A stretch of DNA of 64,000 nucleotides from a virus: positions 1,409 through 65,408 of the IMG/VR virus record IMGVR_UViG_3300045988_083295. The stretch is one strand, 5' to 3'. A program made the translations under genes and the position numbers. Position 1 is the first letter of the stretch. Every line of letters starts with the position of its first letter. Under the pieces are notes generated by a model that had not been told where the DNA came from, searched no databases, and saw only the letters and a program-made list of their open reading frames with translations. Shown one piece after another: positions 6,001 to 64,000 of the stretch.

Positions 6001-9000
6001 GTAAGGTGATGGTCATTAAGACTGACTATTCTGCAAACGGAAGCAAAGCAAGTGTGATAACCTTGTTAGCTGAAAATGATGGACAATTGGATTGGGCAGC
6101 TCAATCATTTGTTGATGGCAAACCTACTTCGGAATTAAAGTATGATTATACGTTGTCGTATGACGATATGATGGAGATGTTTGACGATAATGATGCTATA
6201 CGTCAAGACATTAATCCATTGAAACAGATAGCCCGAAATGCAGGCATAGACATTGATGCCTTACTCAATGGAAAGGAACATGGAACAAAAGTTTCAATAG
6301 AAGCGAGCAGAGAGAAAACTTCTGAAAACGAAGGTGAAAAAACCCTTTCAGCCCAGATTGAAGATGCTTCAGCCGATGTGAACACCGAACCCACCGAGGC
6401 ACAGAAGGAAGCTGGCAACTACAAGAAGGGGCATGTGCATGTCGGTTCGTTCGACATTACCATTGAACAGCCGCAAGGAAGTGTGCGCAAAGGCACGGAT
6501 GCCAATGGCAAGCAATGGGAAAGCAAGATGCACAACACCTATGGATACTTCCGAGGTACAGAAGGCGTGGATGGAGATCACATTGATGTGTTCCTCTCCA
6601 ATGACATTGACGGTTGGAACAGACAAACAGTGTTTGTTGTTGACCAGTACAACCCTGATGGCAGCTTTGACGAGCACAAGGTTATGCTTGGCTTCAATAA
6701 TGCAGAAGAGGCCAAGAGGGATTATCTTGCCAACTATGAGAAGGGCTGGGAAAATGGCCGTAGGATTGACGTGTCCGCTGTGAACCTTGCAGATTTCGAG
6801 AAGTGGATAGCGAGCAGCCACCGCAAGACCAAGCCATTCAGTGAATATTCATCGGTGAAGAAGGAAGGCTCTTCCTCATCAGAAACCAAGCAGTCAAAGT
6901 CCACTGCTGAGGAGAAGCCTTTCAACGCGGTCATTGAGATGCTCCGCAAGAAATTCCCTGATGCCAGCATGGAAGCACTCACGGCTGCTGACAGGCTTTT
7001 GCGTGAACAGGCATTGCCCGGTGAGCGACAGAAGGCCATTGAGGCTGTAGCGAAGGCTCTTGGCCTCAAGGTCGAATGGCGCGACACGATGGAAAAGGAA
7101 AATGGTACGTTCAATCCGAAGACCCGCACCATCACCATTGCACGCGACTCCGAGCATGCCCTTGCCAACACGTTCGGGCATGAGGTGACGCATGCCGTGC
7201 GCAAACTCTCTGAAGCCGACTACAAGAACCTGAAGGATGCCGTAAGAAGACTGTATCCCTCCGAGAAGGAATACAATGAGGCTGTGCAGGCTTATGGCGA
7301 AGTGTACACCGACTTGGACTTTGATGCTCTGGAAGAGGAACTTATTGCCGACAACATTGGTTTCATGATTGGAGGCAGGAACGACATGACGCAGGAACTT
7401 GCCTCACGCATGAACCATCGCGTTCTGTGGGCTATCCATGACGCAATGAATAAGGTGAGGAATGCCCTTGCGAAGGTTCTGCACATTGACTCCAAGAAGA
7501 ACGGACTCTTGGAGGCTATTGATAGTGCCAGAGCTACTATCCGCGAAACGATGGCGAACGCCCAGCGTATTGCGAAGGAGAAGGGACAAGGACTTTCAAA
7601 CGAATCGGATTCCACAAAGCAGTCTCTTCGCACGCAGGACACCACCATACGCGATGCCCTTGTCGAGCGTATGCGCTTGTCGGGCATGGATGTGATCACT
7701 GATGAGACCGGACAGAGGGTGCTGGATATGGCGAATGGAAGGGATACGCGGTTTGAAGCAGCTCGCCACAAGAGCGAAGCAGCACGTAGACGTGACGAAA
7801 TGCTCCGCGCAATAGACCAAGCTAAAGCTTTTATTTCAGGCAAGACTGAGCAGCAGACTCGAGCAGAACGCCGTGAAAGAGAGCGGAAATTCAGAGAAGA
7901 GACCAAAGTTTTGTATGACAGAGTTTTGGCAGGAAATTTTGATTCCGTAACTTTGCAGCTGTTAGACGATTTCATCAACAAAGTAACTCCTAATAATTAT
8001 TATGGAAGACCTCTTTCTAAACGACTTTCAGAGAGAACACTACGAAAAGTGTATGAAAGAGAACGAACGAGTAGCGTCGATGCACTTTTCAGCAGAATAT
8101 CTGAGAGCGCAGTCCCAGCGGATGAACGAACTCGTCCAGAAGCAAAAAGAAGAATTGAGGAGAAAAAGAAAGAACTCCTCAAAGGCTGGGCAATAGCCAC
8201 TGGTAATTGGCACACAGCTGTATCTGATTTTACAGATGACACCAAGCCAATTGGCAGTGGTAAGGATTCTGTTGTATATCACAGCAAGGACGGCAAAAGC
8301 GTAATCAAGGTTTCCAAGGGAAAGGAAAGTGCAAGAAAATTCCGTCCCGACATGGACAATGTTGCTCTCTTCAACACTGTATTCCCTGCAAGCAAATACG
8401 AAATCATAGGCTATGGCGAAATTGACGGCAAGTTCGTTCGCTTTCTTCGTCAGCCAATTGTGGACTTCACCGACAGCACTCCGTTGTCGGTGGAGGAACG
8501 TGTTGCCTATATGGAACGCCTTGGCTTTAGGCCGATGAACGATGAAAAGACTGCTTTCACAAATGGAGAGATAGTTGCTTCGGATATCCAAGGCAATAAT
8601 ATAGTGAAAGATAGAGATGGGAATATCCGTGTGATTGATGCGGATATGCGTTTCCACACTAAAGAGTTTGGTGGAAAATATTCCTATCCAGCAGTTGAGA
8701 CGGATACTGAAACAGCGCCTAACATTCGTGAGCAGCGCGTCTACCATGGTAATGGTGCTAATGATGTCCGTTTCTTCCGCACTGCAAATGGCAAGGCTTA
8801 CGGCTTTACTGTTGGCGGCAAGATTTACATTGACCCAAGGATTGCGACAAGCGAGACCCCGGTGCATGAGTATGCCCATTTGTGGGCAACAGCCTTGAAG
8901 AGTGCGAATGCCAAGGAATGGCAGAACGTGGTAGGGCTGATGAAGGGCACGAAGGTTTGGGATGAGGTGAAGGCTCTTTATCCCGAATTGAAATCAGATG

Positions 9001-12000
9001 ACGAAATCGCTGATGAGGTGCTTGCCACTTATTCAGGCAGACGTGGTGCTGAACGCTTGCGTGAGGAGCAGCGTAGAATTGCCAAGGGAAATGGCAGTGT
9101 GTTCGAGAAGGCTGAAGCTATCAGTGCTTTGGAACGCGTGAAGCAGGCTCTGAAGAGATTCTGGAAGGGCGTTGCTGATTTCCTGCATATTCACTATACG
9201 AGTGCGGAAGAGGTTGCCGACCGCGTGATGAAGGATTTGCTGGATGGGGTTGATCCGCGTAAGTTTGGTGATGGTGGTAAGTCTCTTGATGCCTACAACA
9301 AAATTCGCAAGCATTTCATCGGTGAGCAGGGTGCGGAGCGTGCCGACCATGCTGAAGAGGTGACAACTCGCATTGACAACCTGAACGTTGCTCGCGAGAT
9401 GGAAGATGCCAAGAAAGATGCCAAGGCTATCAAGATGGCTACCGGTTGGGAACGTGGTGCTGACGGCAAGTGGCGGTATGAGATACCCGACTTGAAGTAT
9501 TTTGGCAAGGGTGATGCTGGTTACAAAAAGGCACGTGGAAAGCAACCTTGGAGCAAGGAACTTGATGGCTTGTCAGACAAGATATTTGATGGTGAAGAAC
9601 TTTCGGAATCAGAATACCGACGTTTTGATGAACTTGCACAAAAGGAAGATGATTTCAAGACAGACTATCTGAATAGAGAAAAACCGCACCTTGCTGATTG
9701 GGTGGAGAATGACGAGTTGTTCAAGGCTTATCCCGACTTGAAGCGTGTGAATGTTGTGTTTACTGACCAACTGCCTACAAATGTGGGTGGCAGTTACAAT
9801 GAGCGTGAGCATACTATTGTTGTCAATACGAATTATGTGGGAGACATAGATTCCGTATTGGCTCATGAGGTTCAGCATGCTATTCAGAAGATTGAGGGTT
9901 TTGCGAGGGGCGGTAATCCAGAATCTATACAAGAACGGTTTAAGGCTGCTAAAAAGGAATGGCGTGCGCGTGCTTGGGCTGATGAATTGCGTTACAAGGC
10001 AGATGAAATGGGCGAACATTACAATCAAGCAGCAGTGGAAAAAGCCTTGATTGATGAGTATAAGGAGATGGGCATGGATGATGATGAATGGATGCCTGAC
10101 AAAGAAACTCGCATGAAGGGCTTTAATTACTTTGCAAGGGGTTATGCAGACAGAAGCATGGATGCTGATATTAAGAATTTCAGGTTGGCTGAATCCACTC
10201 GTGCAGACTTTAATCCTTATATGGAATACACTAAACTTGGTGGTGAAGTAGAAAGCCGTAACGTTGAGAAGCGCATGAAAATGTCCCCAGAGGAGCGAAG
10301 AGCAAGTCTTGCCGCAGAGACAGAGGATGTTTCCAGGGAAGACCAGATATTCTTGTTTGGCGAGGACGGTACTAGCATGAAGACCTCATCTGATTTGAAC
10401 GAAATGTTTGGCAATCGTTGGCTTGACGAGCAGACGAACGATGATGGCCGTCATACCACTCAGGTGAAGAGCACCATCAACTCTTACAAGAAGTTTGGGG
10501 ATTGGGTGAAGCGCGACTCCAATGGCCGTGACGTGGACGTGCTTGATGCGAGCAGTGGATTGGGGCTTGGTACGGCATGGATGAGGGACAATGGGTTCAA
10601 GGTTGATGACGTTGAGCCGTTCCCATCAGACAGTCGTGAAGCACCTACGTTCAGCAGCTATGATGAGATAGACAAGAAGTATGACTATATCATCAGCAAT
10701 GCGGTTCTCAATGTGATCCCTGACGATTGGCGTGCCAATGTGCTTCATCAGATGGCCGACAAACTCAAGGATGGCGGCAAGCTGGTGATTAATGTGCGTG
10801 GAGCGGAGGGTATCCGTAAACAAGGCATTGAGGGCAAGACTCGCACCACACTTGATGATGCTTCCGAGATTCTTGTCCATCGTCCTGACGGCAGCATTAA
10901 ATCCTATCAGAAGGGCTTCACGAAGAGCGAACTGAAGGAATGGTGCGAAAAGGAATTGGGCGAAGGTTATTCGGTTGAAATAGCGAATAACAAGAATGCT
11001 GGCGGTAGCTATGACACTGCGGTTGTGGTGACTAAAAATAACGAAAGCGACATTGAGACTATCAATACGAAATTCAATGAGGAATTGCAGCAGCAGATAG
11101 ACGGCACATTGCCAGAAGGTCACATCTATAAGATGGGCAAGCCTGGGCGCATATTGCTCTCTACTGGCGTACCAAATCTTCCCATACAGATGAATGCGAA
11201 AAGACTCCAAGTCAAGGCTACATTATTTGACCATGATTTTGACCTATCGGAAGTGAAAGATTTAGTGAGAGTCTTGCAGCACCCATTGGCAGTTTTTGCC
11301 TATGGTGACAAGTCGAAGGCGCAGAACATCATTGTTCCGCTGCAAAAAGATGGTAAGAACTTTATCGTTGGACTTTCACTCAATCCCACTGTTGGCGGTC
11401 GCAAGTTGGAAATAAACAGCATAAGAAACGTCTTTCCGAAAGACAATTCAGAATGGCTCAATTGGATAAATCAAGACAAGGCCTTGTATATAGACAAAGA
11501 AAAAATCCAAACCCTCATAGACCAACAGCGAACCAATCTCGCTGACGTGGCCTACTTGGATTTGGACTCTGTTGCAAATGTAATGGAAAATTTTGAAAAT
11601 CCAAAGGTTTCTGACGAAAATGTTGCAGATGGCGGCATTATGTTCCGCAATGGTGGGGCTGCGGATGCTGAAAAGCAGTCTCGCAGAGGAACGCCCAATC
11701 TCTACCCAGACCATATTGCACAAGCTATCTATGAGCAGTCTGTGAGCGGTTTCAAGTTTGACTTGGATGAAGCATGGCATGACTCCTTGCTCAGTGTGAA
11801 ACGTCTTCAGGAGGCCATATCCGAGACTCGCGGTGTGCCTATCAGGGACTTCGAGAACGTCTATTGGCATGCCGTTACCCTCAGCAGTGTGAATGCGGCT
11901 GAGATGGAGCAGTTGATGAATCTTCGTATCCAGCCGTTCATTGAGGCGGTTCAGGATATATGCAAGAAGCATGACCTGACTCAGGAAGACATTGAGGTGT

Positions 12001-14966
12001 ATCTCAACTGCAAGCATGGCTTGGAACGTAACGAAGCGATGGCTCGCAAGTTTGCCGAGGCCAAGGCCGAAGAGGAATTTGAGGCTGAACTCAAGAAAGC
12101 CCAGAAGACTGCAACAGCCAATCCTAACGACCAAGCTGCCCAGCTGGCTCTTTTGGATGTGCAGCTGCGCATGAATGACAGAAAGCACGAACTCTATCTC
12201 AAGAACCGCGAGAAGGATTACTCAGGTCTTACGGATATTTTCGACCCGAAGGATAAGGTCACTGGAGACAGACTGGATCTCACCGTTTCGGAATTGGAAG
12301 ATAAGGCAAAGAAGTGTGTTGATGATTTCGAGGCTAAAGTAGGTGTAGCGGAAGTGACCAAGCTGTGGGACAACATTCATGAACTCAACAACTACTCACT
12401 TCGCAAGTCCTATCTCAGTGGTCTTATCAGCAAGAATCAGTACGACAGCGTGAAACAGATGTACCAGTGGTATGTGCCTCTGCGAGGCTTCAACGAAGAG
12501 GTTGCTGGCGATGTGTACACGTATGTGACAAGAGGCGAGACGAGGACTCAGCAGCTTCTGAAGGAGGCCAAGGGACGTACTTCACGTGCTGGAGATATTC
12601 TTGCCACCATGATGAATATGGCCAATTCTGCCGTGAACCAGGGAAACCGAAATCTCATGAAGCAGAAGATCCTCAATCTCGCGCTTAACGCCAAGAGTCC
12701 TCTGTTGTCTGTGAGCAGTACATGGTATCAGACGGATGCCAACGGATTTGACGTACCCATTGAGCCGCCCATCAACGACCAGATGACTCCTTCAGAGCAG
12801 AAGGATGCCATCGAACAGTGGGAGGATACGATGGAGATGCTGGCCAAGCAGGGCAAGGTTCATCGCATGAGCGACAATCTCAGATTGAATCTCCGCACCC
12901 AGAAATGGCAGGCAGATGAGCATTGTATCCGCGTGCAGCGTGGCGGCAAGGAATATTGCGTATGGGTGAATGGTAATCCACGTGCAGCTCAAGCACTCAA
13001 TGACAGACTTGGGAATCAGGTCACCAAACCGTACAAGGCAACTGAGACTATTCTGGACAAGGCCGAAGACCTCTTCACGGATGGCTTCATAAAGATATTC
13101 AGATATATGGCTCAGAGCGTGACAAGCCTTAACCCCGAATTCGTCATCAGCAACTTCCAGCGAGACCTCGCTTCCGCTTCGCTCATCAGCACGGGCAAGT
13201 ATGGTGCAGGTTACACGAAGGACTTCCTTGTCAACGTGAAACGACTTGGCGTGCTCACAGGAACTATGTCTCACAAGAAGGAATACCGCAACGCAGCAGG
13301 TATCTATACGCTCTACAGCAAGTATAAGTCAGGAAACCTTGACAACAACAACGAGATGGAGCGTTACTTTGCCGAATTCATGGCGAACGGAGGCGAGACC
13401 GGCTACACGCAGTCGCTCAGTATTAAGGACTACCAGTCCCGTATCCAATCAGCACTTGGAGACAAAGGCTTTGTGAAATGGTCAAAGAATGCTGGCCATG
13501 CCGTTGCTGATTTCGTTGAGATGGCCAATAGGGGTGTGGAGAACACCTGCCGATTCGCAGCATACATGACAAGCCGTCAACACGGCAAGAGTGTGCTGCA
13601 ATCCATCGTTGATGCGAAGGAAGCGAGTACGAATTTCAATCTCCATGGCGCAGGAGGATTCGGTAACGCTTGGCTGAGGAAGAGCATTATCTTCATCAAT
13701 CCTGCCGTGCAGAGTATTGTGCAGTATTGCCAACTGACGGCCAAGCACCCGAAGGCCATGCTTTCCATGCTTGGCGGTACCATCGGCCTTGGTGCAGCTA
13801 TGGCATTTGCTTGCGCCAGTATGGTCGCACCGGGTGGCGGTGATCCTGACAGTAATTACTGGGATCTGTCTGATTACGTCCGACACAATTACATTGTGAT
13901 ACCTAGCGGTAATGGGAATTGGACACGTATTGCACTCCCTCCCGAAATCAGAGCCGTGTATGGCCTTGGCGTCATCGCGATGGAGGCCGCGATGGGACGG
14001 ATGAATCATAGCAGCATTCCTGCGGCTATCGGTGATCAGCTTATGCAGTTCTCCCCCGTTGCCTTCCTTGATCCACGCAACTTCTTCAACAGAAGCGACA
14101 GCGATCACCCTGTCGGCAAGACCTTGTTCAGGGCATTTATACCTACGCTCCTTTCACCTCTTGCAGATGCATACGTATTTGACGAGGATTTCATGGGGAG
14201 ACAGATTACGGGCAAGAATGACTTCAATGATGACAAGCCAGAGTTTCAGCGGACAAGCTATGATACCCTTCCGCAGTTGGTATCCTTCTCAAGGTGGCTC
14301 AACAATATCAGTGGCGGCAACGACTACAAGAAGGGCTGGATCAATGTCAATCCATCGTCAGCAGGTTATGTGGCTTCCCAATATATCGGTGGTCCCTTGC
14401 AGTTCTTCACGAAGATAGGCAAGACGGTTGCCATGATTACCTATGAGGACTTGCGCGATATGCGCAATGTGCCGTTCCTGAGCCGATTCATGACATCCAC
14501 AGACAATGACTATGGCCGCAATCAGGTAAGCAATGCAGAATTCAAGTATTGGTCTGCCATTGCAGATGATGTCAGAACTCAAATCAGAGGATTCGAGAAG
14601 GAGATTGAATCTGGCGATACAAAGAATCTTGATGACTACAAGAAACTCGTCAGCAGTAAGGAATACGAGATGTATCAGATGATTGACTATATGGATTGGC
14701 TGAAGGATATCAGGGAACTCAACCAGAAACGCAAGGAAGAGACTACGCAGGATGCCCAGAAGCAGGTTACGCTTGAGATTTATGAGGTTCGTCGCAAGAT
14801 GGCCGAATGTCTCAACAAGGCTGAAGAGATGGGTGTTTATCTGGAGATGGGTCAACTCAACCTTGAATTGGCCAATGCCAAGACCACGGAAGAGAGGGCT
14901 GCCATACAAGCCAAGATCAACGAGAAACGCAAAGAGAATCTAAAGAAAATCGGAGCGATTGAATGA
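12..14966 (+). CDS. Giant polyvalent (multi-effector) virion-type protein, >=4,984 aa, 5' end possibly outside window
   Basis: Single uninterrupted ORF. There is no in-frame stop between nt 3 and the GTG at 12, so the true start may lie upstream. It contains ParB-like, InPase-like, three HExxH, kinase-like, SAM-MTase, MuF_C-like and PLxRFG-like motifs (sub-features below). TGA stop at 14964-14966 is followed by a terminator. Confidence 0.9.
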   Translation: MLRTVKNGDDVMNRVNRQVARATRPNQQKVNLGFNNKHSLLGGGSQVQHEGKKFDAAKGDFVDQYSTEAGNVYDNTYEADAEQYNINRNKRDADTLDMVADIERQIREQEELLEKTRKASRDVKAPDNLWDALRYTMSHADGSRLDQEDIDEEAIKANITNLQNRRSLLLHGTSIGQKVGKSIGDQLAEVNKMINANLDDYYKNHPDGGPKIHDLEYNEIWSIPSNPYLDVAKRSLEDAQEMFNEAGKSVGESGLTGFGKGVIRGFGSKLFDARTWDMGYTDLKGGLSLAEVLKKADEGKPLTVEQQKMLDAKATELACAAYFSGALGRGYKAGQVTAESIPFMLEFMLNPLSGTGRSAQAMLTRYALKRFGRKATMELGEDAAKKILYGDIRQLTKSVFDKGLSKGARRLAAKTLAGKASARIAGDITGAAGMTFTTGQGRVAADMLNRATGQVKFGVDTDGKVKYTGHDAPEESSLLTAYGKAFGSQFSENYSEFMGPYISYVGGMFANGLKKIGGKYLFDGLSSLRNRSAAAVMKLPFAPMVSDFIREATKSDWAKVIKGMQKRAHWDGTAEEYLEEVAGNMLNAILVGDNDFSTEEGRGVFNLSDNIDTFLGVGLMSGAMSVSSAAGYRTPAYRARKMVENADARGEKLMGGSLWGKFRSSFDAAQSEQDKQVILTSLLQNSSLTNEGRRAALQYAIGKQFQQAVADGTFREMEEDAEKGNEVERACRAEYAEGQNIDSVEEMRDAKTRYNVLLREALAVEPNAEIYSDPQFYEQSNPNATPEQKAAMRAYAEAKAQYEGVADRMKTDMADQQQKANEQVDRFKNQTDGLITRVRLRGSDAEFYVTSGHISLNNDGTINDAATSSNLTIVDGEGNERFISRGDVVDVLAQNTPEETLEQLNDIIMNEAKAKADLIDGKLSFRAGDTFTILNNEGQEQKVTIAQDPSTMAMSAVIEGEQAAVPLTEDSMAKLQQMSDAYQESRFGKYRQEQLDAVANAENEATQEGTAPASPTAAQEETGEPTEARSYGYGESVSYVDGEGHTQEGVVHGKTPEGTYEVEFDNPPSGKNVVDEYTQEELDALVQPIPAGQTEEAIPEPTALERVPINEETGEPMFEKADSETALDALNEVTGGNEDNTTAIVRAQVEQATKALEALKKKKPSKKAPSLKGSPLAMVKAQQEAEANYNTAMEEYNAQVAAAEENLNAWSRINSLMNDRKRAIREQQEAERKAREEELHAEAVARLEEDKRIAAEKAAEQEAVGTHAVNPKIKAKWDGATKVEGNPNAITLADGSTIRGHYVLTEAGAATASHDVNNAYEPTEGFPVDENGESVNDRDYKRDRDAQRIVRDMADSYDGRALQSPVIVSKDGVVLSGNNRTMSGEIAARQGTDKAYVAHLREFGAMFGFTPEQIDGMQHPRVVFVPDEELPYDANTFARFNAEQQKKQSKPEHAVKLGKIVPDNVFTSIVGDISRFDRMSDYYADGKAAASAISQLLDAGVINEMQLPELRTGNALSAAGKELIENTLIGKVFQTSPDAVRQIISTPTLRQSVVMGLNEIANNRTLAKSGYDLSKELAAAVDLVSRAKAEAPEIYKEGMPVSPYGRQQGLFDDEYGDSRVTDGVTLLLADLLNSGKPSDLRKVLSTYNHEAASPAAGLMDMFSGDVPSKEDVLNNVLNHFRNATPKEQQAIVDAAIAERKRRAEAAEPGGGSQGGEQTENAVRGSEETSAENLGGNQADGIQEKLTEEEADAMLDRMKSIADPMPEVELTPENWMNTFGLSNKIDTPIGEVKMGESQYAKLMEKKRSKEFGMVVGTITDPDVVFIEPSSAKDGQVTERAYSYVFVKTFKKEDENVRYYSSVTVSIDGMEISVSSHYINSNKAKKKLLELNRRYTKTALISNSSDGRLAEQQDAVPDLLPTQENNAVSDLPFPKDGVSVGEDTANSTELQGNGKESSHKGFVPDEKVIEENVQRSERALGLPSSVKREKTEVKVSDNGKVMVIKTDYSANGSKASVITLLAENDGQLDWAAQSFVDGKPTSELKYDYTLSYDDMMEMFDDNDAIRQDINPLKQIARNAGIDIDALLNGKEHGTKVSIEASREKTSENEGEKTLSAQIEDASADVNTEPTEAQKEAGNYKKGHVHVGSFDITIEQPQGSVRKGTDANGKQWESKMHNTYGYFRGTEGVDGDHIDVFLSNDIDGWNRQTVFVVDQYNPDGSFDEHKVMLGFNNAEEAKRDYLANYEKGWENGRRIDVSAVNLADFEKWIASSHRKTKPFSEYSSVKKEGSSSSETKQSKSTAEEKPFNAVIEMLRKKFPDASMEALTAADRLLREQALPGERQKAIEAVAKALGLKVEWRDTMEKENGTFNPKTRTITIARDSEHALANTFGHEVTHAVRKLSEADYKNLKDAVRRLYPSEKEYNEAVQAYGEVYTDLDFDALEEELIADNIGFMIGGRNDMTQELASRMNHRVLWAIHDAMNKVRNALAKVLHIDSKKNGLLEAIDSARATIRETMANAQRIAKEKGQGLSNESDSTKQSLRTQDTTIRDALVERMRLSGMDVITDETGQRVLDMANGRDTRFEAARHKSEAARRRDEMLRAIDQAKAFISGKTEQQTRAERRERERKFREETKVLYDRVLAGNFDSVTLQLLDDFINKVTPNNYYGRPLSKRLSERTLRKVYERERTSSVDALFSRISESAVPADERTRPEAKRRIEEKKKELLKGWAIATGNWHTAVSDFTDDTKPIGSGKDSVVYHSKDGKSVIKVSKGKESARKFRPDMDNVALFNTVFPASKYEIIGYGEIDGKFVRFLRQPIVDFTDSTPLSVEERVAYMERLGFRPMNDEKTAFTNGEIVASDIQGNNIVKDRDGNIRVIDADMRFHTKEFGGKYSYPAVETDTETAPNIREQRVYHGNGANDVRFFRTANGKAYGFTVGGKIYIDPRIATSETPVHEYAHLWATALKSANAKEWQNVVGLMKGTKVWDEVKALYPELKSDDEIADEVLATYSGRRGAERLREEQRRIAKGNGSVFEKAEAISALERVKQALKRFWKGVADFLHIHYTSAEEVADRVMKDLLDGVDPRKFGDGGKSLDAYNKIRKHFIGEQGAERADHAEEVTTRIDNLNVAREMEDAKKDAKAIKMATGWERGADGKWRYEIPDLKYFGKGDAGYKKARGKQPWSKELDGLSDKIFDGEELSESEYRRFDELAQKEDDFKTDYLNREKPHLADWVENDELFKAYPDLKRVNVVFTDQLPTNVGGSYNEREHTIVVNTNYVGDIDSVLAHEVQHAIQKIEGFARGGNPESIQERFKAAKKEWRARAWADELRYKADEMGEHYNQAAVEKALIDEYKEMGMDDDEWMPDKETRMKGFNYFARGYADRSMDADIKNFRLAESTRADFNPYMEYTKLGGEVESRNVEKRMKMSPEERRASLAAETEDVSREDQIFLFGEDGTSMKTSSDLNEMFGNRWLDEQTNDDGRHTTQVKSTINSYKKFGDWVKRDSNGRDVDVLDASSGLGLGTAWMRDNGFKVDDVEPFPSDSREAPTFSSYDEIDKKYDYIISNAVLNVIPDDWRANVLHQMADKLKDGGKLVINVRGAEGIRKQGIEGKTRTTLDDASEILVHRPDGSIKSYQKGFTKSELKEWCEKELGEGYSVEIANNKNAGGSYDTAVVVTKNNESDIETINTKFNEELQQQIDGTLPEGHIYKMGKPGRILLSTGVPNLPIQMNAKRLQVKATLFDHDFDLSEVKDLVRVLQHPLAVFAYGDKSKAQNIIVPLQKDGKNFIVGLSLNPTVGGRKLEINSIRNVFPKDNSEWLNWINQDKALYIDKEKIQTLIDQQRTNLADVAYLDLDSVANVMENFENPKVSDENVADGGIMFRNGGAADAEKQSRRGTPNLYPDHIAQAIYEQSVSGFKFDLDEAWHDSLLSVKRLQEAISETRGVPIRDFENVYWHAVTLSSVNAAEMEQLMNLRIQPFIEAVQDICKKHDLTQEDIEVYLNCKHGLERNEAMARKFAEAKAEEEFEAELKKAQKTATANPNDQAAQLALLDVQLRMNDRKHELYLKNREKDYSGLTDIFDPKDKVTGDRLDLTVSELEDKAKKCVDDFEAKVGVAEVTKLWDNIHELNNYSLRKSYLSGLISKNQYDSVKQMYQWYVPLRGFNEEVAGDVYTYVTRGETRTQQLLKEAKGRTSRAGDILATMMNMANSAVNQGNRNLMKQKILNLALNAKSPLLSVSSTWYQTDANGFDVPIEPPINDQMTPSEQKDAIEQWEDTMEMLAKQGKVHRMSDNLRLNLRTQKWQADEHCIRVQRGGKEYCVWVNGNPRAAQALNDRLGNQVTKPYKATETILDKAEDLFTDGFIKIFRYMAQSVTSLNPEFVISNFQRDLASASLISTGKYGAGYTKDFLVNVKRLGVLTGTMSHKKEYRNAAGIYTLYSKYKSGNLDNNNEMERYFAEFMANGGETGYTQSLSIKDYQSRIQSALGDKGFVKWSKNAGHAVADFVEMANRGVENTCRFAAYMTSRQHGKSVLQSIVDAKEASTNFNLHGAGGFGNAWLRKSIIFINPAVQSIVQYCQLTAKHPKAMLSMLGGTIGLGAAMAFACASMVAPGGGDPDSNYWDLSDYVRHNYIVIPSGNGNWTRIALPPEIRAVYGLGVIAMEAAMGRMNHSSIPAAIGDQLMQFSPVAFLDPRNFFNRSDSDHPVGKTLFRAFIPTLLSPLADAYVFDEDFMGRQITGKNDFNDDKPEFQRTSYDTLPQLVSFSRWLNNISGGNDYKKGWINVNPSSAGYVASQYIGGPLQFFTKIGKTVAMITYEDLRDMRNVPFLSRFMTSTDNDYGRNQVSNAEFKYWSAIADDVRTQIRGFEKEIESGDTKNLDDYKKLVSSKEYEMYQMIDYMDWLKDIRELNQKRKEETTQDAQKQVTLEIYEVRRKMAECLNKAEEMGVYLEMGQLNLELANAKTTEERAAIQAKINEKRKENLKKIGAIE
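3876..4215 (+). other. ParB/sulfiredoxin-like nuclease-fold module of the giant protein
   Basis: VIVSKDGVVLSGNNRTMSGEIA (nt 4107-4172) fits the ParB N-terminal DGxxxxxGxxR signature. Domain borders are approximate. Confidence 0.6.
6411..6809 (+). other. InPase-like (polyvalent-protein inorganic pyrophosphatase-like) module
   Basis: AGNYKKGHVHVGSFDITIEQPQGSVRKG...YGYFRGTEGVDGDHIDVFLS resembles, from memory, the InPase block described for polyvalent proteins. Confidence 0.55.
7056..7440 (+). other. Zincin metallopeptidase module 1 (MPTase-PolyVal/ArdC-like)
   Basis: HEVTH at nt 7179-7193, preceded by TRTITIARDSEHALANTFG, typical of polyvalent-protein zincins. Confidence 0.6.
8253..8648 (+). 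other. Protein-kinase-like fold module
   Basis: Glycine-rich loop plus Lys (GSGKDSVVYHSKDGKSVIKVSKG), then a catalytic-loop/DFG-like segment IQGNNIVKDRDGNIRVIDAD. Confidence 0.5.
8739..8900 (+). other. Zincin metallopeptidase module 2
   Basis: HEYAH at nt 8865-8879, preceded by GGKIYIDPRIATSETPV. Confidence 0.5.
9750..9915 (+). other. Zincin metallopeptidase module 3
   Basis: HEVQH at nt 9864-9878 in the context EREHTIVVNTNYVGDIDSVLAHEVQHAIQKIEGFARGGN. Confidence 0.5.
10440..11030 (+). other. Class I SAM-dependent methyltransferase module
   Basis: Motif I VLDASSGLGLG (nt 10539-10571), an acidic residue after beta-2 (FKVDDVEP), and a later YDYIISNAVLNVIP...GGKLVINV block. Confidence 0.6.
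11109..11510 (+). other. MuF_C-like / large-polyvalent-protein-associated module
   Basis: LPEGHIYKMGKPGRILLSTGVPNLPIQMNAKRL...HPLAVFAYGD...NFIVGLSLNP...EINSIRNVFPKD matches the conserved MuF C-terminal-type block as I remember it. Confidence 0.5.
12471..12494 (+). other. PLxRFG-like motif (YVPLRGFN)
   Basis: Motif seen in the translated sequence. Assignment to the PLxRFG domain family is from memory only. Confidence 0.35.
13690..13850 (+). other. Hydrophobic/transmembrane-like helices in the C-terminal part of the giant protein
   Basis: IIFINPAVQSIVQYCQL and LSMLGGTIGLGAAMAFACASMVAPGGG are long apolar, Gly/Ala-rich stretches. Confidence 0.5.
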
Positions 14967-38614: not shown

Positions 38615-38696
38615 TACGTGCATAAAAAAACTCCCAACACTGTTGTGTCGGGAGTCTAAGCCCATGATGGGGCTTGGCGTTAAATAATAGTACTAG
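38615..38696 (-). repeat. Copy A of an ~80-bp structured 3' module (inverted partner at 62948-63026)
   Basis: The reverse complement aligns with 62948-63026 at roughly 85-90% identity by eye. It comprises TAGTACTATTATTTAACG, a small hairpin, a terminator hairpin and a T run. Confidence 0.85.
38624..38654 (-). terminator. Rho-independent terminator of hicAB (minus strand)
   Basis: On the minus strand: CTCCCGACA / TGTTGGGAG stem, followed by TTTTTTT. Confidence 0.8.
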
Positions 38697-38699
38697 GTG

Positions 38700-39119
38700 C
38701 TATCTTATAATGGATAGATATTCACCAATATGGCGAATACCTTCTAATATTCGAATATGTTGTTTCTCTCTTGGCTTTTTCAATCCAGTTGCGTAGTGGT
38801 TGAGCAAAGCCGGATTGATACCAGTTACCCTAGATATAGCTATCAGGGTTGTATATTTCTCAGCCTTGCGAATCAGAGCGGCAGTGCTTAATGTTTCAAC
38901 GAAAGCATAATCACCATCCACCAACCATTTAGGCAAGTGTTCGCCATCTTCCAATAATCCTTCCACATGAGAGGATATGGCCTCACGTAGATTAGAGATA
39001 AGCTCTTCATAAGTCCTGCCAGTAGCAATGACCATACCGCACAAACGATCATCCTCTGTGACGGCAGAGAAGTTCTTATCACACCAATCTATAATAATCT
39101 TGATATTCTCCATTTTCAT
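38700..39119 (-). CDS. hicB: HicB-family antitoxin
   Basis: N-terminal HicB-fold segment (FSAVTEDDRLCGMVIATGRTYEELISNLREAISSHVE) plus a C-terminal HTH-like part. Lies directly downstream of hicA. Confidence 0.8.
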   Translation of the reverse strand: MKMENIKIIIDWCDKNFSAVTEDDRLCGMVIATGRTYEELISNLREAISSHVEGLLEDGEHLPKWLVDGDYAFVETLSTAALIRKAEKYTTLIAISRVTGINPALLNHYATGLKKPREKQHIRILEGIRHIGEYLSIIR

Positions 39120-39161: not shown

Positions 39162-39362
39162 TTACTTGTTCCAACCAGCTTGTTTCCAAATGCTGTGGGT
39201 TAGTTCTTCTCCCAAGGTATCGCTTAATTTGCCGTTAACGGTTACGCGACCCTTCTTCGTCTCATGCTTGAACTGACGATGTGATGTCCCTGTTCTTTTG
39301 CATAGATACCAGCCATCGTCTAACAACAGCTTGATAATTTCTTTTACCTTGTATTTTCTCAC
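39162..39362 (-). CDS. hicA: HicA-family mRNA interferase toxin
   Basis: 66 aa. KEIIKLLLDDGWYLCKRTGTSHRQFKHETKKGRVTV is the classic HicA signature. GTG start. Confidence 0.85.
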   Translation of the reverse strand: MRKYKVKEIIKLLLDDGWYLCKRTGTSHRQFKHETKKGRVTVNGKLSDTLGEELTHSIWKQAGWNK

Positions 39363-39387
39363 ATAGCGAAACTATTATTTAACGCTG

Positions 39388-39395
39388 CAAAGGTA
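39388..39395 (-). promoter_or_regulatory. -7 box TACCTTTG for hicAB
   Basis: TAnnTTTG match 25 nt upstream of the hicA start. Confidence 0.55.
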
Positions 39396-39511
39396 AGTAT
39401 TTATTTACTTCCAACCAAGAAAATATTCATAAAAGTATTGAAATATTTACCATATAAGATAATGGACGTAATAAGGGTGCTTGAATCCTTGCGGACGTTG
39501 TTTTAAATTCG

Positions 39512-39519
39512 TATCTTTG
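39512..39519 (+). promoter_or_regulatory. -7 box TATCTTTG, divergent from the hicAB promoter
   Basis: TAnnTTTG match. The shared TTTGCAGCG forms a 10-bp inverted repeat with the hicAB promoter region. Confidence 0.45.
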
Positions 39520-39525
39520 CAGCGT

Positions 39526-39626
39526 TTGTTGGTTCGGCATTCTCATCACGTTGAACAACATATTCTTCGTTTCCTTCCGCGTAAGCAGAGGGGGAATCCC
39601 ACGCCTTGTCAGCGTGGGGTTTTTTG
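39526..39626 (+). ncRNA. Candidate ~100-nt small RNA, convergent with the integrase 3' end
   Basis: A promoter-like box and an intrinsic terminator bracket a ~100-nt stretch containing no ATG. Confidence 0.35.
39598..39626 (+). terminator. Rho-independent terminator
   Basis: CCCACGC / GCGTGGG stem, followed by GTTTTTTG. It abuts the integrase stop codon. Confidence 0.75.
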
Positions 39627-39629
39627 TTT

Positions 39630-40838
39630 CTAATAACTACCCTCGCCAAATACATATTCTATCAGAGTCTTGTTGGCTTCATTGATCGCTGAGTAATCTT
39701 TCTTGACGTAAAGATTCGTTACCCTCATGGACTCGTCTATGTGGCACAACATGTCGTTGACTATATATATAGGTATCCTCACGTCATTGACCGAGATGGT
39801 GGCCATCGAATGGCGAGCAGAGTAAAATTGCAATCTGTCCACACCGATTTCCTCCCCAACCTTCTTCAAGCCGTAACTTAGGGCATCGTTGAAGGTTTTG
39901 GATGTTGAATAACGGTCAGCGAAGTTCAATACATTCTCTCCGTCAGACTTGCTCAAGTACTCATCCAGTATAGGCTTGATGATAGCAGGAACGTGAACGA
40001 CCATCTTTGCGCCATCACTTCTTCTGTCGCGTGTTTTCGTCCGGTAATAGGTGATGGTCTTGCCGTCATAGTCGGTGAGATTGTATAGGTCTATGGCGTT
40101 AATGCCCATCAGACAAAACGATATAAGGAAACAGTCGCGTGCCTGGTCGAACAGACCTTTGTCTCCATGTCGGGGAAGGTTCATGATTCTTCGGATCACG
40201 TCAACTTCTACTGCACGCTTTTCGGCCACATTCTGTTTAGGCAGTTTGAAGCCCGACAAGGACTCCTTGATTCGGATCACGTTGTTGTCGTAGTCGTTGT
40301 AATAGTTCCTCGCATCGTTGAATATCTTGACAATGGCGTTGGTATATAGAGATTTAGCACGTTTCTTGTCACCGAGATATTTGACGTAGTCGTTCATACG
40401 TGAGACGGTTATTTCGTTCATGAGAATCTTTCTGCCTCCGTGGAAGCGGATAAACGAACGGACAGCCGACCGATAATTGAGTATGCCCTTCTTACTCTCA
40501 TTCTCAGAGAGCCATCTGGAACAATAGTCGGTGAAGTATATGCCAGTAGACTCATCCTTCATCTTCAATCGTTCTACGATTCTATCGAATGGTATGTCGT
40601 TTAACTCCAGCATAAGCGTGTTGAGTTTCCTTCTATACTCTCTGATAAGGTCGTCGCCTCTGTCTAGAATCTGCTGGTTCTTAATCTTGAATGAGGCAGT
40701 TAGGTCTTTCTTCATCTGCGCGATCATAGTAGTCGGCAGATAAGTGACATGCTTGCCATGTGTGTAGCGAACGTACACAGTAAAAGTACCGTCCGCTCTC
40801 ATTCTGTCCTTGCGGACGAGCAATTTAAAATTGTCCAT
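39630..40838 (-). CDS. int: Tyrosine site-specific integrase (Bacteroidota phage-integrase type)
   Basis: 402 aa. YYRTKTRDR (box I Arg), YSARHSMAT (H-x-x-R region), MLCH and a C-terminal Tyr in NLYVKKDY. N-terminal arm-binding/SAM-like region. Confidence 0.85.
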   Translation of the reverse strand: MDNFKLLVRKDRMRADGTFTVYVRYTHGKHVTYLPTTMIAQMKKDLTASFKIKNQQILDRGDDLIREYRRKLNTLMLELNDIPFDRIVERLKMKDESTGIYFTDYCSRWLSENESKKGILNYRSAVRSFIRFHGGRKILMNEITVSRMNDYVKYLGDKKRAKSLYTNAIVKIFNDARNYYNDYDNNVIRIKESLSGFKLPKQNVAEKRAVEVDVIRRIMNLPRHGDKGLFDQARDCFLISFCLMGINAIDLYNLTDYDGKTITYYRTKTRDRRSDGAKMVVHVPAIIKPILDEYLSKSDGENVLNFADRYSTSKTFNDALSYGLKKVGEEIGVDRLQFYSARHSMATISVNDVRIPIYIVNDMLCHIDESMRVTNLYVKKDYSAINEANKTLIEYVFGEGSY

Positions 40839-42867: not shown

Positions 42868-42903
42868 TACTTTTGCATCAGAAATCAATCGGACATTGTC
42901 CGA
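42868..42903 (+). promoter_or_regulatory. Promoter/operator unit: TACTTTTG -7 box plus palindrome TCGGACATTGTCCGA
   Basis: The 25-bp stretch GAAATCAATCGGACATTGTCCGAAA is identical to 44585-44609, with the same 13-nt spacing from the -7 box. Confidence 0.6.
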
Positions 42904-42997
42904 AACTAACTCACCCGTTAGGTTCAGAAGTTTTCTTCAGTTCTTCGGCAACGGCCTTTACGAGTGATTCAACCGAGAGTTGTCCGCTCAAGGTTGT

Positions 42998-44572: not shown

Positions 44573-44608
44573 TACATTTGCACCCGAAATCAATCGGACA
44601 TTGTCCGA
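44573..44608 (+). promoter_or_regulatory. Rightward early promoter/operator: TACATTTG plus TCGGACATTGTCCGA
   Basis: TAnnTTTG box, a TTTG about 20 nt upstream, and an operator palindrome identical to 42889-42903. Confidence 0.65.
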
Positions 44609-44643
44609 AATCATTTGAGACAACAAATATACGAAAAAAAATA

Positions 44644-45706: not shown

Positions 45707-45780
45707 GGGACTTTAGCTCAGACGGTCAGAGCAGCTGACTCATAATCAGAAGGTCGCGAGTTCAAGCCTCGCAGGTCCCA
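45707..45780 (+). tRNA. tRNA-Met (or Ile-lysidine type), anticodon CAT
   Basis: Hand-folded 74-nt cloverleaf: GGGACTT/AGGTCCC acceptor, GCTC/GAGC D-stem, loop CTCATAA (CAT at 45741-45743), T-arm GCGAG-TTCAAGC-CTCGC. Confidence 0.85.
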
Positions 45781-45836
45781 CCGCTTTTGGAGTTCTTGTT
45801 AAGGTGTTTTTGTGGCAGCCCGGAAAGACGGGCACG

Positions 45837-45908
45837 GACTGAATAGCTCAACGGACAGAGCATCCCCCTCCTAAGGGGAAGATGAGGGTTCGATTCCCCC
45901 TTCAGTCA
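45837..45908 (+). tRNA. tRNA-Arg, anticodon CCT
   Basis: Hand-folded 72-nt cloverleaf: GACTGAA/TTCAGTC acceptor, TCCCC-CTCCTAA-GGGGA anticodon arm (CCT at 45870-45872), T-arm with one A-C mismatch. Confidence 0.75.
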
Positions 45909-45951
45909 CTATGAGATTTTCAACATTACTAATCGAATAAGACGAAGAATC

Positions 45952-62394: not shown

Positions 62395-62787
62395 ATGGAT
62401 AAATACATTCTGAAGATGACTGTCCTCGCTGAGGGCATGTCGATGGAAGAAGCACAAGAGAAGGGCTATCTCAACAGAATAGATGCCGAGAAGATGCTCA
62501 GCAAGGGAGGTATCATGACGGGTGCACTCGTTCGGTACGAGAATGGATATCAGTCGTGGATGCCAGAAGATGTGTTCAATTCGTGTAGAAAGAAGAACAG
62601 CACCTTCCTAGAACGTCTCGTTGCCGAACGTGACGAACTTGTTGAGAAGATGGAGAAGTTGACCCTCTTCCTCAAGTCAGACATCTTTATGAATATGAAC
62701 GATTACTCACGTGATCTCCTGATGGAGCAGTACCGCATTATGACTAACTATGTGGACTGCCTTAATCGTAGGATTAAGGGGCACTGA
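62395..62787 (+). CDS. Hypothetical protein
   Basis: ORF track. Confidence 0.6.
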   Translation: MDKYILKMTVLAEGMSMEEAQEKGYLNRIDAEKMLSKGGIMTGALVRYENGYQSWMPEDVFNSCRKKNSTFLERLVAERDELVEKMEKLTLFLKSDIFMNMNDYSRDLLMEQYRIMTNYVDCLNRRIKGH

Positions 62788-62947
62788 TTGCACTGAATCT
62801 TAATCCTTGGAACTGAAGATGTTAAAGGCGAATGTCTACAAGTAGATTCATATAAGGAGAGTTTGCACCTTGTCATTCTATGCGGTGGTTCTCTTGGGTG
62901 GAAGCGCAGGAATGCTTACCTTTGCGCTGTTACCATCTCCGTAACAC

Positions 62948-63026
62948 ATAGTACTATTATTTAACGACCGACCCATCTAGGGTCTTCGACTCCCGACACA
63001 ACAGTGTTGGGAGTTTTTTATGCCCG
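62948..63026 (+). repeat. Copy B of the ~80-bp structured 3' module (inverted partner at 38615-38696)
   Basis: TAGTACTATTATTTAACG, the GACCC/GGGTC hairpin and the terminator hairpin. There are two compensatory base-pair changes relative to copy A. Confidence 0.85.
62990..63019 (+). terminator. Rho-independent terminator closing the early region
   Basis: CTCCCGACA / TGTTGGGAG stem, followed by TTTTTT. Confidence 0.8.
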
Positions 63027-63029
63027 TAT

Positions 63030-63075
63030 GGAGACGAAAATACACAGATGGAGTGTGTGCTACCTAATATCTTTG
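63030..63075 (+). promoter_or_regulatory. Late promoter copy: GGAGACGAAAATAC box plus TATCTTTG -7 box
   Basis: GACGAAAATAC starts 35 nt upstream of TATCTTTG (63068-63075). ATG at 63097. Confidence 0.55.
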
Positions 63076-63096: not shown

Positions 63097-63864
63097 ATGA
63101 TTGGAGCAATTGTAGGTGCGGCAACTGGGTTGGCCAGTTCTATATATGGAGGCATTGCCTCGGCTAGAGCCGCGAGAAAGCAAAAAAATGAGATAGCACG
63201 ACAGAAGGAGGCTAATAAGGCTTGGTATGAGAGGCGCTACAATGAGGATGCCACGCAGAGGAGCGATGCCCAGCGACTCCTTACGAAGACGCGTGAGGCG
63301 TATGAGAAGCGCAATCGTGAGGCTGCGGCAACTCAGGCCGTTGTGGGTGGTAGCGATGAATCTGTTGCGGCTACCAGAGAAGCCAATGCGAAGGGACTCG
63401 CTGATACGGCAAGCCAAATCAATGCGGCAAGCGAGGCTCGCAAGGATTCAGTTGAAGAATCCTATCGCAACCAAGACCAGCAGTTGGCCGGGCAGTTATC
63501 TGCCCTTGAGGCTCAGCGTTCGGCTAACATTGCCAATGCCACAAGTCAAGCCGTTGGTGCGGCTGCTCAGCTGGGTAGCGCAATCGATGGCTCGGTTGAA
63601 GACAGAAGAGCCAAGAAGGAAGAAGCGGCCAAGGCGGCACAGGCACAAGCTGCGGCTGAAGCCAAGACTTCGGGTGCGGCTCTCAACGCTCAGGTGGTGC
63701 AACAACAGCAACCGCAACAGTGGCTCTCTCCATTGGAGCCTACTCAGGCGGCCGAACCTATCAAGCTGAATGAATTTCATGGGGATAATAAGAAGAAACC
63801 TGACAACTGGATGGATATGTCTATCTTCGATAATGCTAAGAGAGCGCAGAATGCGACTTTTTAA
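63097..63864 (+). CDS. Gly-zipper N-terminal helix plus coiled-coil protein (internal virion/ejection-protein candidate)
   Basis: MIGAIVGAATGLASSIYGGIASA, followed by a long charged A/Q/E-rich region. First gene after the late promoter. Confidence 0.6.
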   Translation: MIGAIVGAATGLASSIYGGIASARAARKQKNEIARQKEANKAWYERRYNEDATQRSDAQRLLTKTREAYEKRNREAAATQAVVGGSDESVAATREANAKGLADTASQINAASEARKDSVEESYRNQDQQLAGQLSALEAQRSANIANATSQAVGAAAQLGSAIDGSVEDRRAKKEEAAKAAQAQAAAEAKTSGAALNAQVVQQQQPQQWLSPLEPTQAAEPIKLNEFHGDNKKKPDNWMDMSIFDNAKRAQNATF

Positions 63865-63867
63865 ACT

Positions 63868-64000
63868 ATGGGAAGTACATTTGACTATATAACGGGGAAG
63901 GACAAGAAGCAGACCCCTACGGCACAGCCAGCGCAACAGCCTACTCAGGTGGCACAGCCAGCGCAACAGCCTACTCAGGTGGCACAGCCAGCGCAACAGC
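63868..64000 (+). CDS. 5' part of an ORF with PAQQPTQVAQ repeats, continuing beyond the window
   Basis: ATG at 63868. Hand translation MGSTFDYITGKDKKQTPTAQPAQQPTQVAQPAQQPTQVAQPAQQ, still open at the window end. Confidence 0.5.
   Translation, partial: MGSTFDYITGKDKKQTPTAQPAQQPTQVAQPAQQPTQVAQPAQQ
63922..64000 (+). repeat. Perfect 30-bp tandem repeat (2.6 copies visible, truncated by the window end)
   Basis: GCACAGCCAGCGCAACAGCCTACTCAGGTG repeats at 63922, 63952 and 63982, in frame. Confidence 0.9.

Follow-up and report, generated by a model that had tools for sequence, protein, structure and literature searches.

A proposed hicAB 3′UTR fold-back arm with terminator, and its gene-less paralogue as a candidate small RNA, in a Bacteroidota-type temperate phage

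The window, that is, the whole 64-kb stretch of DNA that was analysed, is a temperate Bacteroidota-type phage. Genes for terminase, portal and tail fibre and for a 4984-aa polyvalent protein occupy 12-38584, and a rightward early block, starting with tRNA-Met (CAT, 45707-45782) and tRNA-Arg (CCT, 45837-45909), both on the plus strand, ends with a dUTPase and a crAss001_48-like protein. The polyvalent protein ORF (12-14966, plus strand) may run past the window start, and its domains include InPase, Kinase-PolyVal, LPD14/23/38, MuF_C, methyltransferase, SprT-like and ddrB-ParB. On the minus strand, a gene for a HicA_toxin-domain protein is followed by a HicB antitoxin gene, the composition of a type II hicAB operon. 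The HicB_lk_antitox score is 23.8 bits, under the 27-bit cut-off, and the assignment is backed by the adjacency to hicA and by homologues that are paired with HicA. The genes and promoter elements needed here are the following:

39630-40838, minus strand: integrase with Phage_int_SAM_5 and Arm-DNA-bind_5 domains
39380-39423, minus strand: hicA promoter, with the -7 box TACCTTTG at 39395-39388 and a -33-like CTTGG; the span overlaps the start of the leader
39162-39362, minus strand: hicA toxin gene, 66 aa, GTG start at 39362 (HicA_toxin, E = 1.2e-13)
38700-39119, minus strand: hicB-like antitoxin gene, 137-139 aa, HicB_lk_antitox at the N-terminus and helix-turn-helix-like at the C-terminus
63068-63075, plus strand: -7 box TATCTTTG, the only Bacteroidota-type box between copy B of the module described below and the first late ORF (63097-63864)

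The promoters of the window are of the TTTG...TAnnTTTG type and not of the sigma-70 type. A late promoter that the earlier note had placed at 63030 followed sigma-70 logic, the wrong promoter type for this host group, and was discarded. The spacer of the hicA promoter holds a palindrome, AAGTA..TACTT, which is a probable operator. In canonical hicAB operons HicB binds palindromic promoter operators (PMC11594946; PMC10865869), and the phage operon resembles them in this promoter-spacer palindrome and in the order hicA then hicB. Across the -33/-7 spacer the palindrome of the window reads AAGTAaataaaTACTT (39409-39394, minus strand), and the hicAB promoters of the homologous loci L041-L156 also carry perfect or near-perfect palindromes there, for example GATATAAATATTTATATC and GATAGAATTTTTACTATC. 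The palindrome sequence differs between groups of loci, and such palindromes are probably HicB operators. Back-to-back with the hicA promoter, within 39512-39628 (plus strand), lies a promoter-like box, TATCTTTGCAGCGTT, followed ~75 nt further on by a strong terminator of the plus strand (39591-39625), which adjoins the stop codon of the integrase gene. The ~105-nt RNA predicted from this box (fold z = -3.7) could be another small RNA, or else an attP or host-gene 3′ end fragment. In the lysogeny-control region, canonical TTTG-N19-TAnnTTTG promoters at 42868-42910 (plus), 44573-44615 (plus) and 44594-44631 (minus) each precede the same ~25-nt segment with the palindrome TCGGACAATGTCCGA; these segments are probably repressor operators of the lysis/lysogeny switch.

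A computed repeat search of the window recovered an inverted pair of 78 nt, 38625-38702 (copy A) and 62942-63019 (copy B), which the earlier note had described as an inverted module of about 80 bp. Its identity had been put at 85-90% by eye; the computed value is 83%. Copy A, whose sense strand is the minus strand, directly follows hicB and forms the end of hicAB, as had been proposed; copy B is read on the plus strand. A related contig joins the window end to the window start after about 1.5 kb, so that the genes following copy B run into the structural region. In this 39-kb contig (L002), window position 64000 lies ~1.5 kb upstream of window position ~800, and because of this junction the source is probably a circularly permuted ~65.5-kb phage genome rather than a prophage with host flanks. 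At window 62770-62790, the crAss001_48-like ORF of the relatives L002, L004 and L019 has 9 nt fewer at its 3′ end, and its C-terminus and stop codon are altered as a result. The parts of the two copies are as follows:

38624-38657, minus strand: copy A intrinsic terminator, with the stem at 38657-38628 (GACTCCCGACAC/GTGTTGGGAGTT) and the U run at 38630-38624
38658-38675, minus strand: copy A small hairpin AAGCCC-CAUCAU-GGGCUU, with AAGCCC at 38675-38670 and GGGCTT at 38663-38658
62970-62974 and 62980-62984, plus strand: copy B small hairpin GACCC/GGGTC, from the fold

Sense-strand folds of both copies (z = -4.9 and -5.5) contain the small hairpin, a G+C hairpin of 11-13 bp and a U run, in agreement with the layout first described. 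The terminator scan also picked up both copies, and each has the form of an intrinsic terminator, a stem of 11-13 bp with 6 G-C pairs followed by 6-7 U. Scan and folds bear out the claim that both are credible terminators aimed into the late (structural) region. Two elements are shared exactly: the 18-mer TAGTACTATTATTTAACG has two exact matches in the window, at 38678-38695 (minus) and 62949-62966 (plus), against 0.04 expected, and a 24-nt terminator core likewise has two, against 0 expected. The 18-mer and the 37-nt terminator are identical between the copies, and all 13 differences fall inside ~26 central positions. Alignment of the small hairpins outward from the loop shows two neighbouring pairs exchanged on either side of the stem (G-C to A-U and A-U to G-C), so the compensatory changes reported between AAGCCC/GGGCTT and GACCC/GGGTC stand in the computed alignment; copy B of a relative adds two pair-preserving changes in the terminator stem. 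The module sequence itself is known in three variants only (A, B and B′), from one narrow phage lineage, and the covariation inside the module therefore rests on three sequences. Exact-pattern scans with the 18-mer and the terminator through viral contigs, GTDB representative genomes and metagenomes returned near-identical copies from this one lineage and chance matches, and a DNA search of deposited phage genomes gave no match. The Rfam comparison proposed in the earlier note was run for both loci at gathering thresholds and at permissive E-values and yielded no family; only the tRNAs passed, and the best match of the module scored 21 bits against a gathering threshold of 47. Nor did the suggestion of a structured RNA of ~230 nt survive: the fold of the 158 nt that precede copy B (62790-62947) is not better than that of shuffled sequences (z = +0.22), and the whole-region z of -2.4 lends it no support because the signal comes from the module alone.

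The 18-mer had been regarded as one part of a 3′ module, which missed its role. A 14-nt core of the 18-mer (ACTATTATTTAACG) is the exact reverse complement of CGTTAAATAATAGT in the hicA leader (39384-39371), the only further occurrence of the 14-mer complement in the window and thus a third site. This leader sits between the -7 box and the GTG start. On the minus strand, the two arms are:

39360-39384, minus strand: hicA leader, 5′ arm, CGUUAAAUAAUAGU (39384-39371), then UUC, GCUA, U and GUG
38678-38699, minus strand: copy A 3′ arm, CAC-C-UAGU-ACUAUUAUUUAACG, beginning 1 nt past the hicB stop codon

In the minimum free energy (MFE) fold of the whole predicted hicAB mRNA (758 nt), the 5′ end pairs with the 3′UTR over 21 bp, made up of the 14-mer, GCUA/UAGU and GUG/CAC. 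The helix of the window reaches the start codon via a G.U pair, and because GUG/CAC joins it, the start codon is predicted to be sequestered. The segment common to A and B (CAC-N-TAGT-14mer) consists of exactly the leader-pairing nucleotides; the sole A/B difference within the 22-nt pairing segment is a single unpaired base, at which B and B′ differ as well. On this complementarity, the 18-mer is to be seen as no mere spacer; it supplies the 3′ arm of a long-range helix whose other arm is the hicA leader, and its pairing with the leader is the main biological content of the element.

A search for the module in relatives, as the earlier note had advised, finds it within the single lineage described above; the helix on the flanks of hicAB reaches dozens of operons. 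Homologues of HicB and HicA were located on contigs of metagenomic and viral origin, and 80 of the 204 hicAB loci detected in viral contigs were examined. Among 57 distinct flank combinations, 47 reach a score of 12 or more, where the null is 7.5 +/- 1.4. The helix is 11-24 bp long, with bulges and lineage-specific extensions, and pairs the leader with a stretch of ~25 nt that begins right after the hicB stop codon or overlaps it; its 5′ arm always starts 2-5 nt past the TAnnTTTG box. About 10 of the 57 flank sets go without a clear helix, so it is not obligatory. The closing helix appears in whole-mRNA MFE folds of most of the 31 operons folded, and four loci without a helix in the flank scoring show no clear one in these folds either. 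Cultured phages offered no further examples: a tblastn search for a cultured Bacteroides phage with this hicAB returned only Paenibacillus, Pseudomonas and a few other non-Bacteroides phages, and the hicAB loci of one Paenibacillus and one Pseudomonas phage contain no helix.

Arm sequences differ between homologues, and cognate 5′/3′ pairs outscore non-cognate ones. Relative to the consensus arms GTCAAACAATAAC and GTTATTGTTTGAC, compensated variants occur in L080 (..ACGATAAC../..GTTATCGT..), L135 (..CAATCAA../..TTGATTG..) and L125 (..CAAAAGTTA/TGACTTTTG..); the pairs of L037 and L140 are more divergent, and that of the window departs from the consensus by four compensated changes. When 31 distinct arm pairs were aligned without gaps, each arm being anchored to the consensus independently, the 13-bp core is ~99% paired, and changes on both sides occur in 17 of 21 aligned column pairs (49 cells). 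None of 500 shuffles matched the observed values of two-sided change, and slid registers gave 27-55% pairing against 75% in the true register. Complementarity, conservation and covariation of the two arms are observed in many operons, which together with the predicted folds gives the long-distance 5′-3′ UTR helix characteristic of a fold-back mRNA. Some loci of this set deviate in gene content. At ~9548-10430, L070, L071 and L073 have a HicB-like gene with the consensus 3′ arm, an unrelated 127-aa gene in the place of hicA and no 5′ arm, and L039 has a DUF2442 gene in place of hicA. A tandem array with a period of ~44 nt that contains GTTATTGTTTGACAAGATACTCTGGGTGTTTG, at ~8730-8870 of the very large viral contig L159 (IMGVR_UViG_3300024981_000255, 713 kb), turned up by chance in the scan for arms and seems to have no relation to hicAB.

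These results bear on two other explanations of the repeat. It could be a duplicated intrinsic terminator with which the 18-mer and the small hairpin hitch-hike, having no role of their own, and this would suit two strong terminators at operon ends, the lack of an Rfam match and the very narrow distribution. We give it very little credence, given that the 18-mer is complementary to the hicA leader, that it corresponds to a 3′UTR arm covarying with the leader in dozens of homologous operons, and that the differences between A and B lie wholly outside it. Alternatively, the arms could act as DNA, as the ends of a hicAB inverton or mobile cassette or as split half-sites for a protein such as HicB. 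The arm sequence GTCAAACAATAAC is conserved across divergent operons, and such strong conservation would also fit a protein or recombinase site; the arms are inverted around mobile-looking cargo, the integrase adjoins hicAB in the window, and Bacteroidales carry many invertible regions. Against these points, the promoter box lies directly upstream in 67 of 67 contigs with a 5′ arm and none of the 67 is inverted (at the level of assemblies), and the arms do not enclose the promoter or its palindrome, the likely operator. Within the core, internal one-sided changes are strand-asymmetric, with six G.U on the sense strand and no A.C, which favours pairing of the sense RNA over mere identity of a DNA repeat. 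A helix varying between 11 and 24 bp with bulges and lineage-specific extensions is also poorly suited to such a site, a recombinase is absent near most loci, and copy B repeats the 5′ arm in direct orientation, so that recombination between the two would delete 23.6 kb. A role of the arms as DNA consequently seems improbable to us, and the inverton and mobile-cassette readings in particular were judged unlikely on the absence of inverted contigs and the asymmetric wobble changes.

With the arms read as RNA, copy B calls for an explanation of its own. A second inverted pair, 39380-39423 and 62889-62932, relates the region upstream of hicA to that upstream of copy B, and both members contain TACCTTTG. 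Over 62889-62932, copy B and the hicA promoter are identical at 33 of 44 positions (z ~7.5; the next best segment in the window reaches 26), which makes the segment the unique paralogue of the hicA promoter in the window. Two features are predicted here:

62889-62928, plus strand: copy B promoter-like segment, paralogue of the hicA promoter, with the -7 box TACCTTTG at 62917-62924
62929-63019, plus strand: predicted ~90-nt copy B RNA, from promoter box, terminator and fold

The transcription start sites and the ~90-nt RNA are predictions from these signals. The RNA would begin with a weak 5′ hairpin GUUAC/GUAAC (62929-62945), continue through the arm CAC-A-UAGU-ACUAUUAUUUAACG (62945-62966) and the small hairpin (62970-62984), and end with the terminator stem (62988-63015) and the U run (63014-63019). 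The fold of the RNA, predicted at 93 nt, has z = -6.2, and the arm is unpaired in the MFE structure between two hairpins, a layout typical of small RNAs. There is no ATG in 62929-62990, and copy B holds no genes. When the arm was scanned against both strands of the 64 kb, with its own antisense strands set aside, the best non-self target was the hicA leader at -26.1 kcal/mol; the background was -5.9 +/- 2.5, and the target ranked next reached -19.4 kcal/mol. The predicted duplex with the leader has 22 bp, so that the seed is complementary to the translation initiation region. The terminator scan found no plus-strand terminator between 62220 and copy B, and for this reason early mRNAs would also end at copy B with the arm.

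The same data could describe a decayed, gene-less relic of a second hicAB that is kept only as the terminator of the early/late boundary, its arm doing nothing in trans, with the copy A arm acting in cis. Copy B does have a promoter and a 3′ end paralogous to those of hicAB without the genes between them. Searches within +/-10 kb of 37 hicB loci found no other solo copy of arm plus terminator, and a consensus-arm scan of viral contigs for solo copies likewise found none, its one extra copy belonging to a second complete hicAB in L054. This second operon, with the same arm and upstream of structural genes, suggests how such a site could originate. The conservation of the copy B region (92-97%, against 83-94% for its flanks) is not markedly higher and could reflect recent descent or gene conversion instead of selection. 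On the other hand, all 21 of the 21 leader-pairing nucleotides are intact in B and B′, in contrast to more than ten changes in the adjacent hairpin. Both promoter elements have been kept, the predicted fold leaves the arm single-stranded with a hairpin on either side, and as the 3′ end of early mRNAs the arm would be transcribed anyway. We regard a mere remnant, the main alternative, as unlikely, though it deserves to be taken seriously. As for L054 itself (IMGVR_UViG_3300010163_000314), its two hicAB operons (268-907 and 4173-4900) each come with a promoter of their own and are almost alike in their 5′ and 3′ arms. A portal-like gene comes directly after the second operon, whose HicB is only 28% identical to that of the window; around copy B, no protein-level synteny of the window with L054 was found.

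The reading that suits the element best is that of a hicAB 3′UTR fold-back arm with its terminator, accompanied by a gene-less paralogue as a candidate small RNA. Our preferred explanation, to which we lend slightly more belief than doubt, is that the module is the fold-back arm of the hicAB 3′UTR and that the gene-less copy B could yield a trans-acting RNA silencing hicA. Copy A is assigned to the hicAB 3′UTR because its helix with the leader flanks homologous operons, covaries and closes the whole-mRNA folds. This 3′UTR would comprise the 3′ arm CAC.UAGUACUAUUAUUUAACG, a small spacer hairpin and the intrinsic terminator. By pairing with the first ~25 nt of the same mRNA, namely the hicA leader and GUG, the arm would close the ~760-nt transcript as a panhandle, and the closed helix would lower translation of the toxin cistron and leave hicB translatable. 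Translation in Bacteroidota uses no Shine-Dalgarno sequence and depends on A-rich leaders around -11 to -15 (PMC7366714). The 5′ arm covers precisely this A-rich zone, and toxin translation would be held down because Bacteroidota ribosomes need the leader to be single-stranded. Copy B, in turn, may be a paralogue of the cassette ends (promoter, arm, small hairpin and terminator) from which the genes and the 5′ arm were lost or in which they were never present. It would end early rightward transcription ahead of the late genes and place the anti-hicA arm on an abundant short RNA, which would be either a primary transcript of ~90 nt started at the promoter of copy B or the 3′ terminal part of early mRNAs. 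Pairing of this RNA in trans with the hicA leader could keep the toxin silent, for example in lytic growth. From these sequence features we infer that arm and leader pair in RNA and repress translation, and that copy B is transcribed and works in trans. The cis 3′ arm that is already there counts against this, as a trans copy may then add little. The most specific form of the proposal, in which the hicAB of a Bacteroidota phage is locked by a hok-like fold-back and copy B is a dedicated trans RNA antitoxin that mimics the 3′ arm, is advanced tentatively, and we have considerable doubts about it. The HicA fold presumably resembles a double-stranded-RNA-binding domain, and the double-stranded panhandle of 13-21 bp might itself be a ligand of HicA.

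The element is a new form of known kinds of RNA control. In hok mRNA, the fold-back helix of tac and fbi joins the 5′ and 3′ UTRs and blocks translation initiation (PMC9841398). The phage operon is similar to the type I system hok/Sok in that a toxin mRNA is closed by a long-distance 5′-3′ UTR helix, here a predicted one, and in that a separate small RNA, here a candidate, complements the toxin leader. The toxin, however, is not a small membrane-toxic peptide as in hok but a 66-aa HicA of the type II RNase family with a protein antitoxin, HicB, and no mok/ucb/dcb refolding apparatus is present; the system lacks both the small membrane-toxic peptide and the overlapping cis-antisense RNA of the hok kind, and unlike Sok, the trans RNA would stem from a 3′UTR paralogue 24 kb away, there being no overlapping antisense gene. 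In icaR of Staphylococcus aureus, a 3′UTR segment pairs with the translation initiation region of its own mRNA. The phage arrangement likewise sets a 3′UTR segment against the initiation region of the same mRNA, and differs in that the target is an A-rich, Shine-Dalgarno-less Bacteroidota leader and that the pairing is family-wide in a mobile toxin-antitoxin cassette. GibS is a trans-acting small RNA of Bacteroides (PMC7366714). With RNAs of the GibS type, copy B would share its own predicted sigma-ABfr-type promoter, an intrinsic terminator and a conserved single-stranded seed directed at the initiation region; in contrast to GibS, to which it has no sequence or Rfam kinship, it is phage-encoded, originates from a toxin-antitoxin 3′UTR and is known here from sequence alone.

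Control of type II toxin-antitoxin systems is thought to consist of protein-level neutralisation and promoter autoregulation, and to our knowledge only type I systems have been described with a translational lock of the fold-back kind. UTR pairing and an RNA component go unmentioned both in a recent HicAB review and in a survey of HicA contexts (PMC11594946, PMC10865869), and unlike in canonical hicAB, the helix would add a post-transcriptional layer. If true, a covarying 5′-3′ helix in the hicAB mRNA of many gut and oral Bacteroidota phages would amount to a type I-like lock on a type II system, a hybrid of a protein antitoxin with an RNA translational silencer of the toxin, and would show in a specific case how RNA exerts control in a phylum that lacks Shine-Dalgarno sequences. 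With the gene-less copy comes a possible route of birth for a regulatory small RNA, out of both ends of a toxin-antitoxin cassette. The copy also hints at a means by which a temperate phage might stop its own abortive-infection-type module from firing. With an RNA made at the early/late boundary, the phage would be able to disarm the toxin that it carries in lytic growth.
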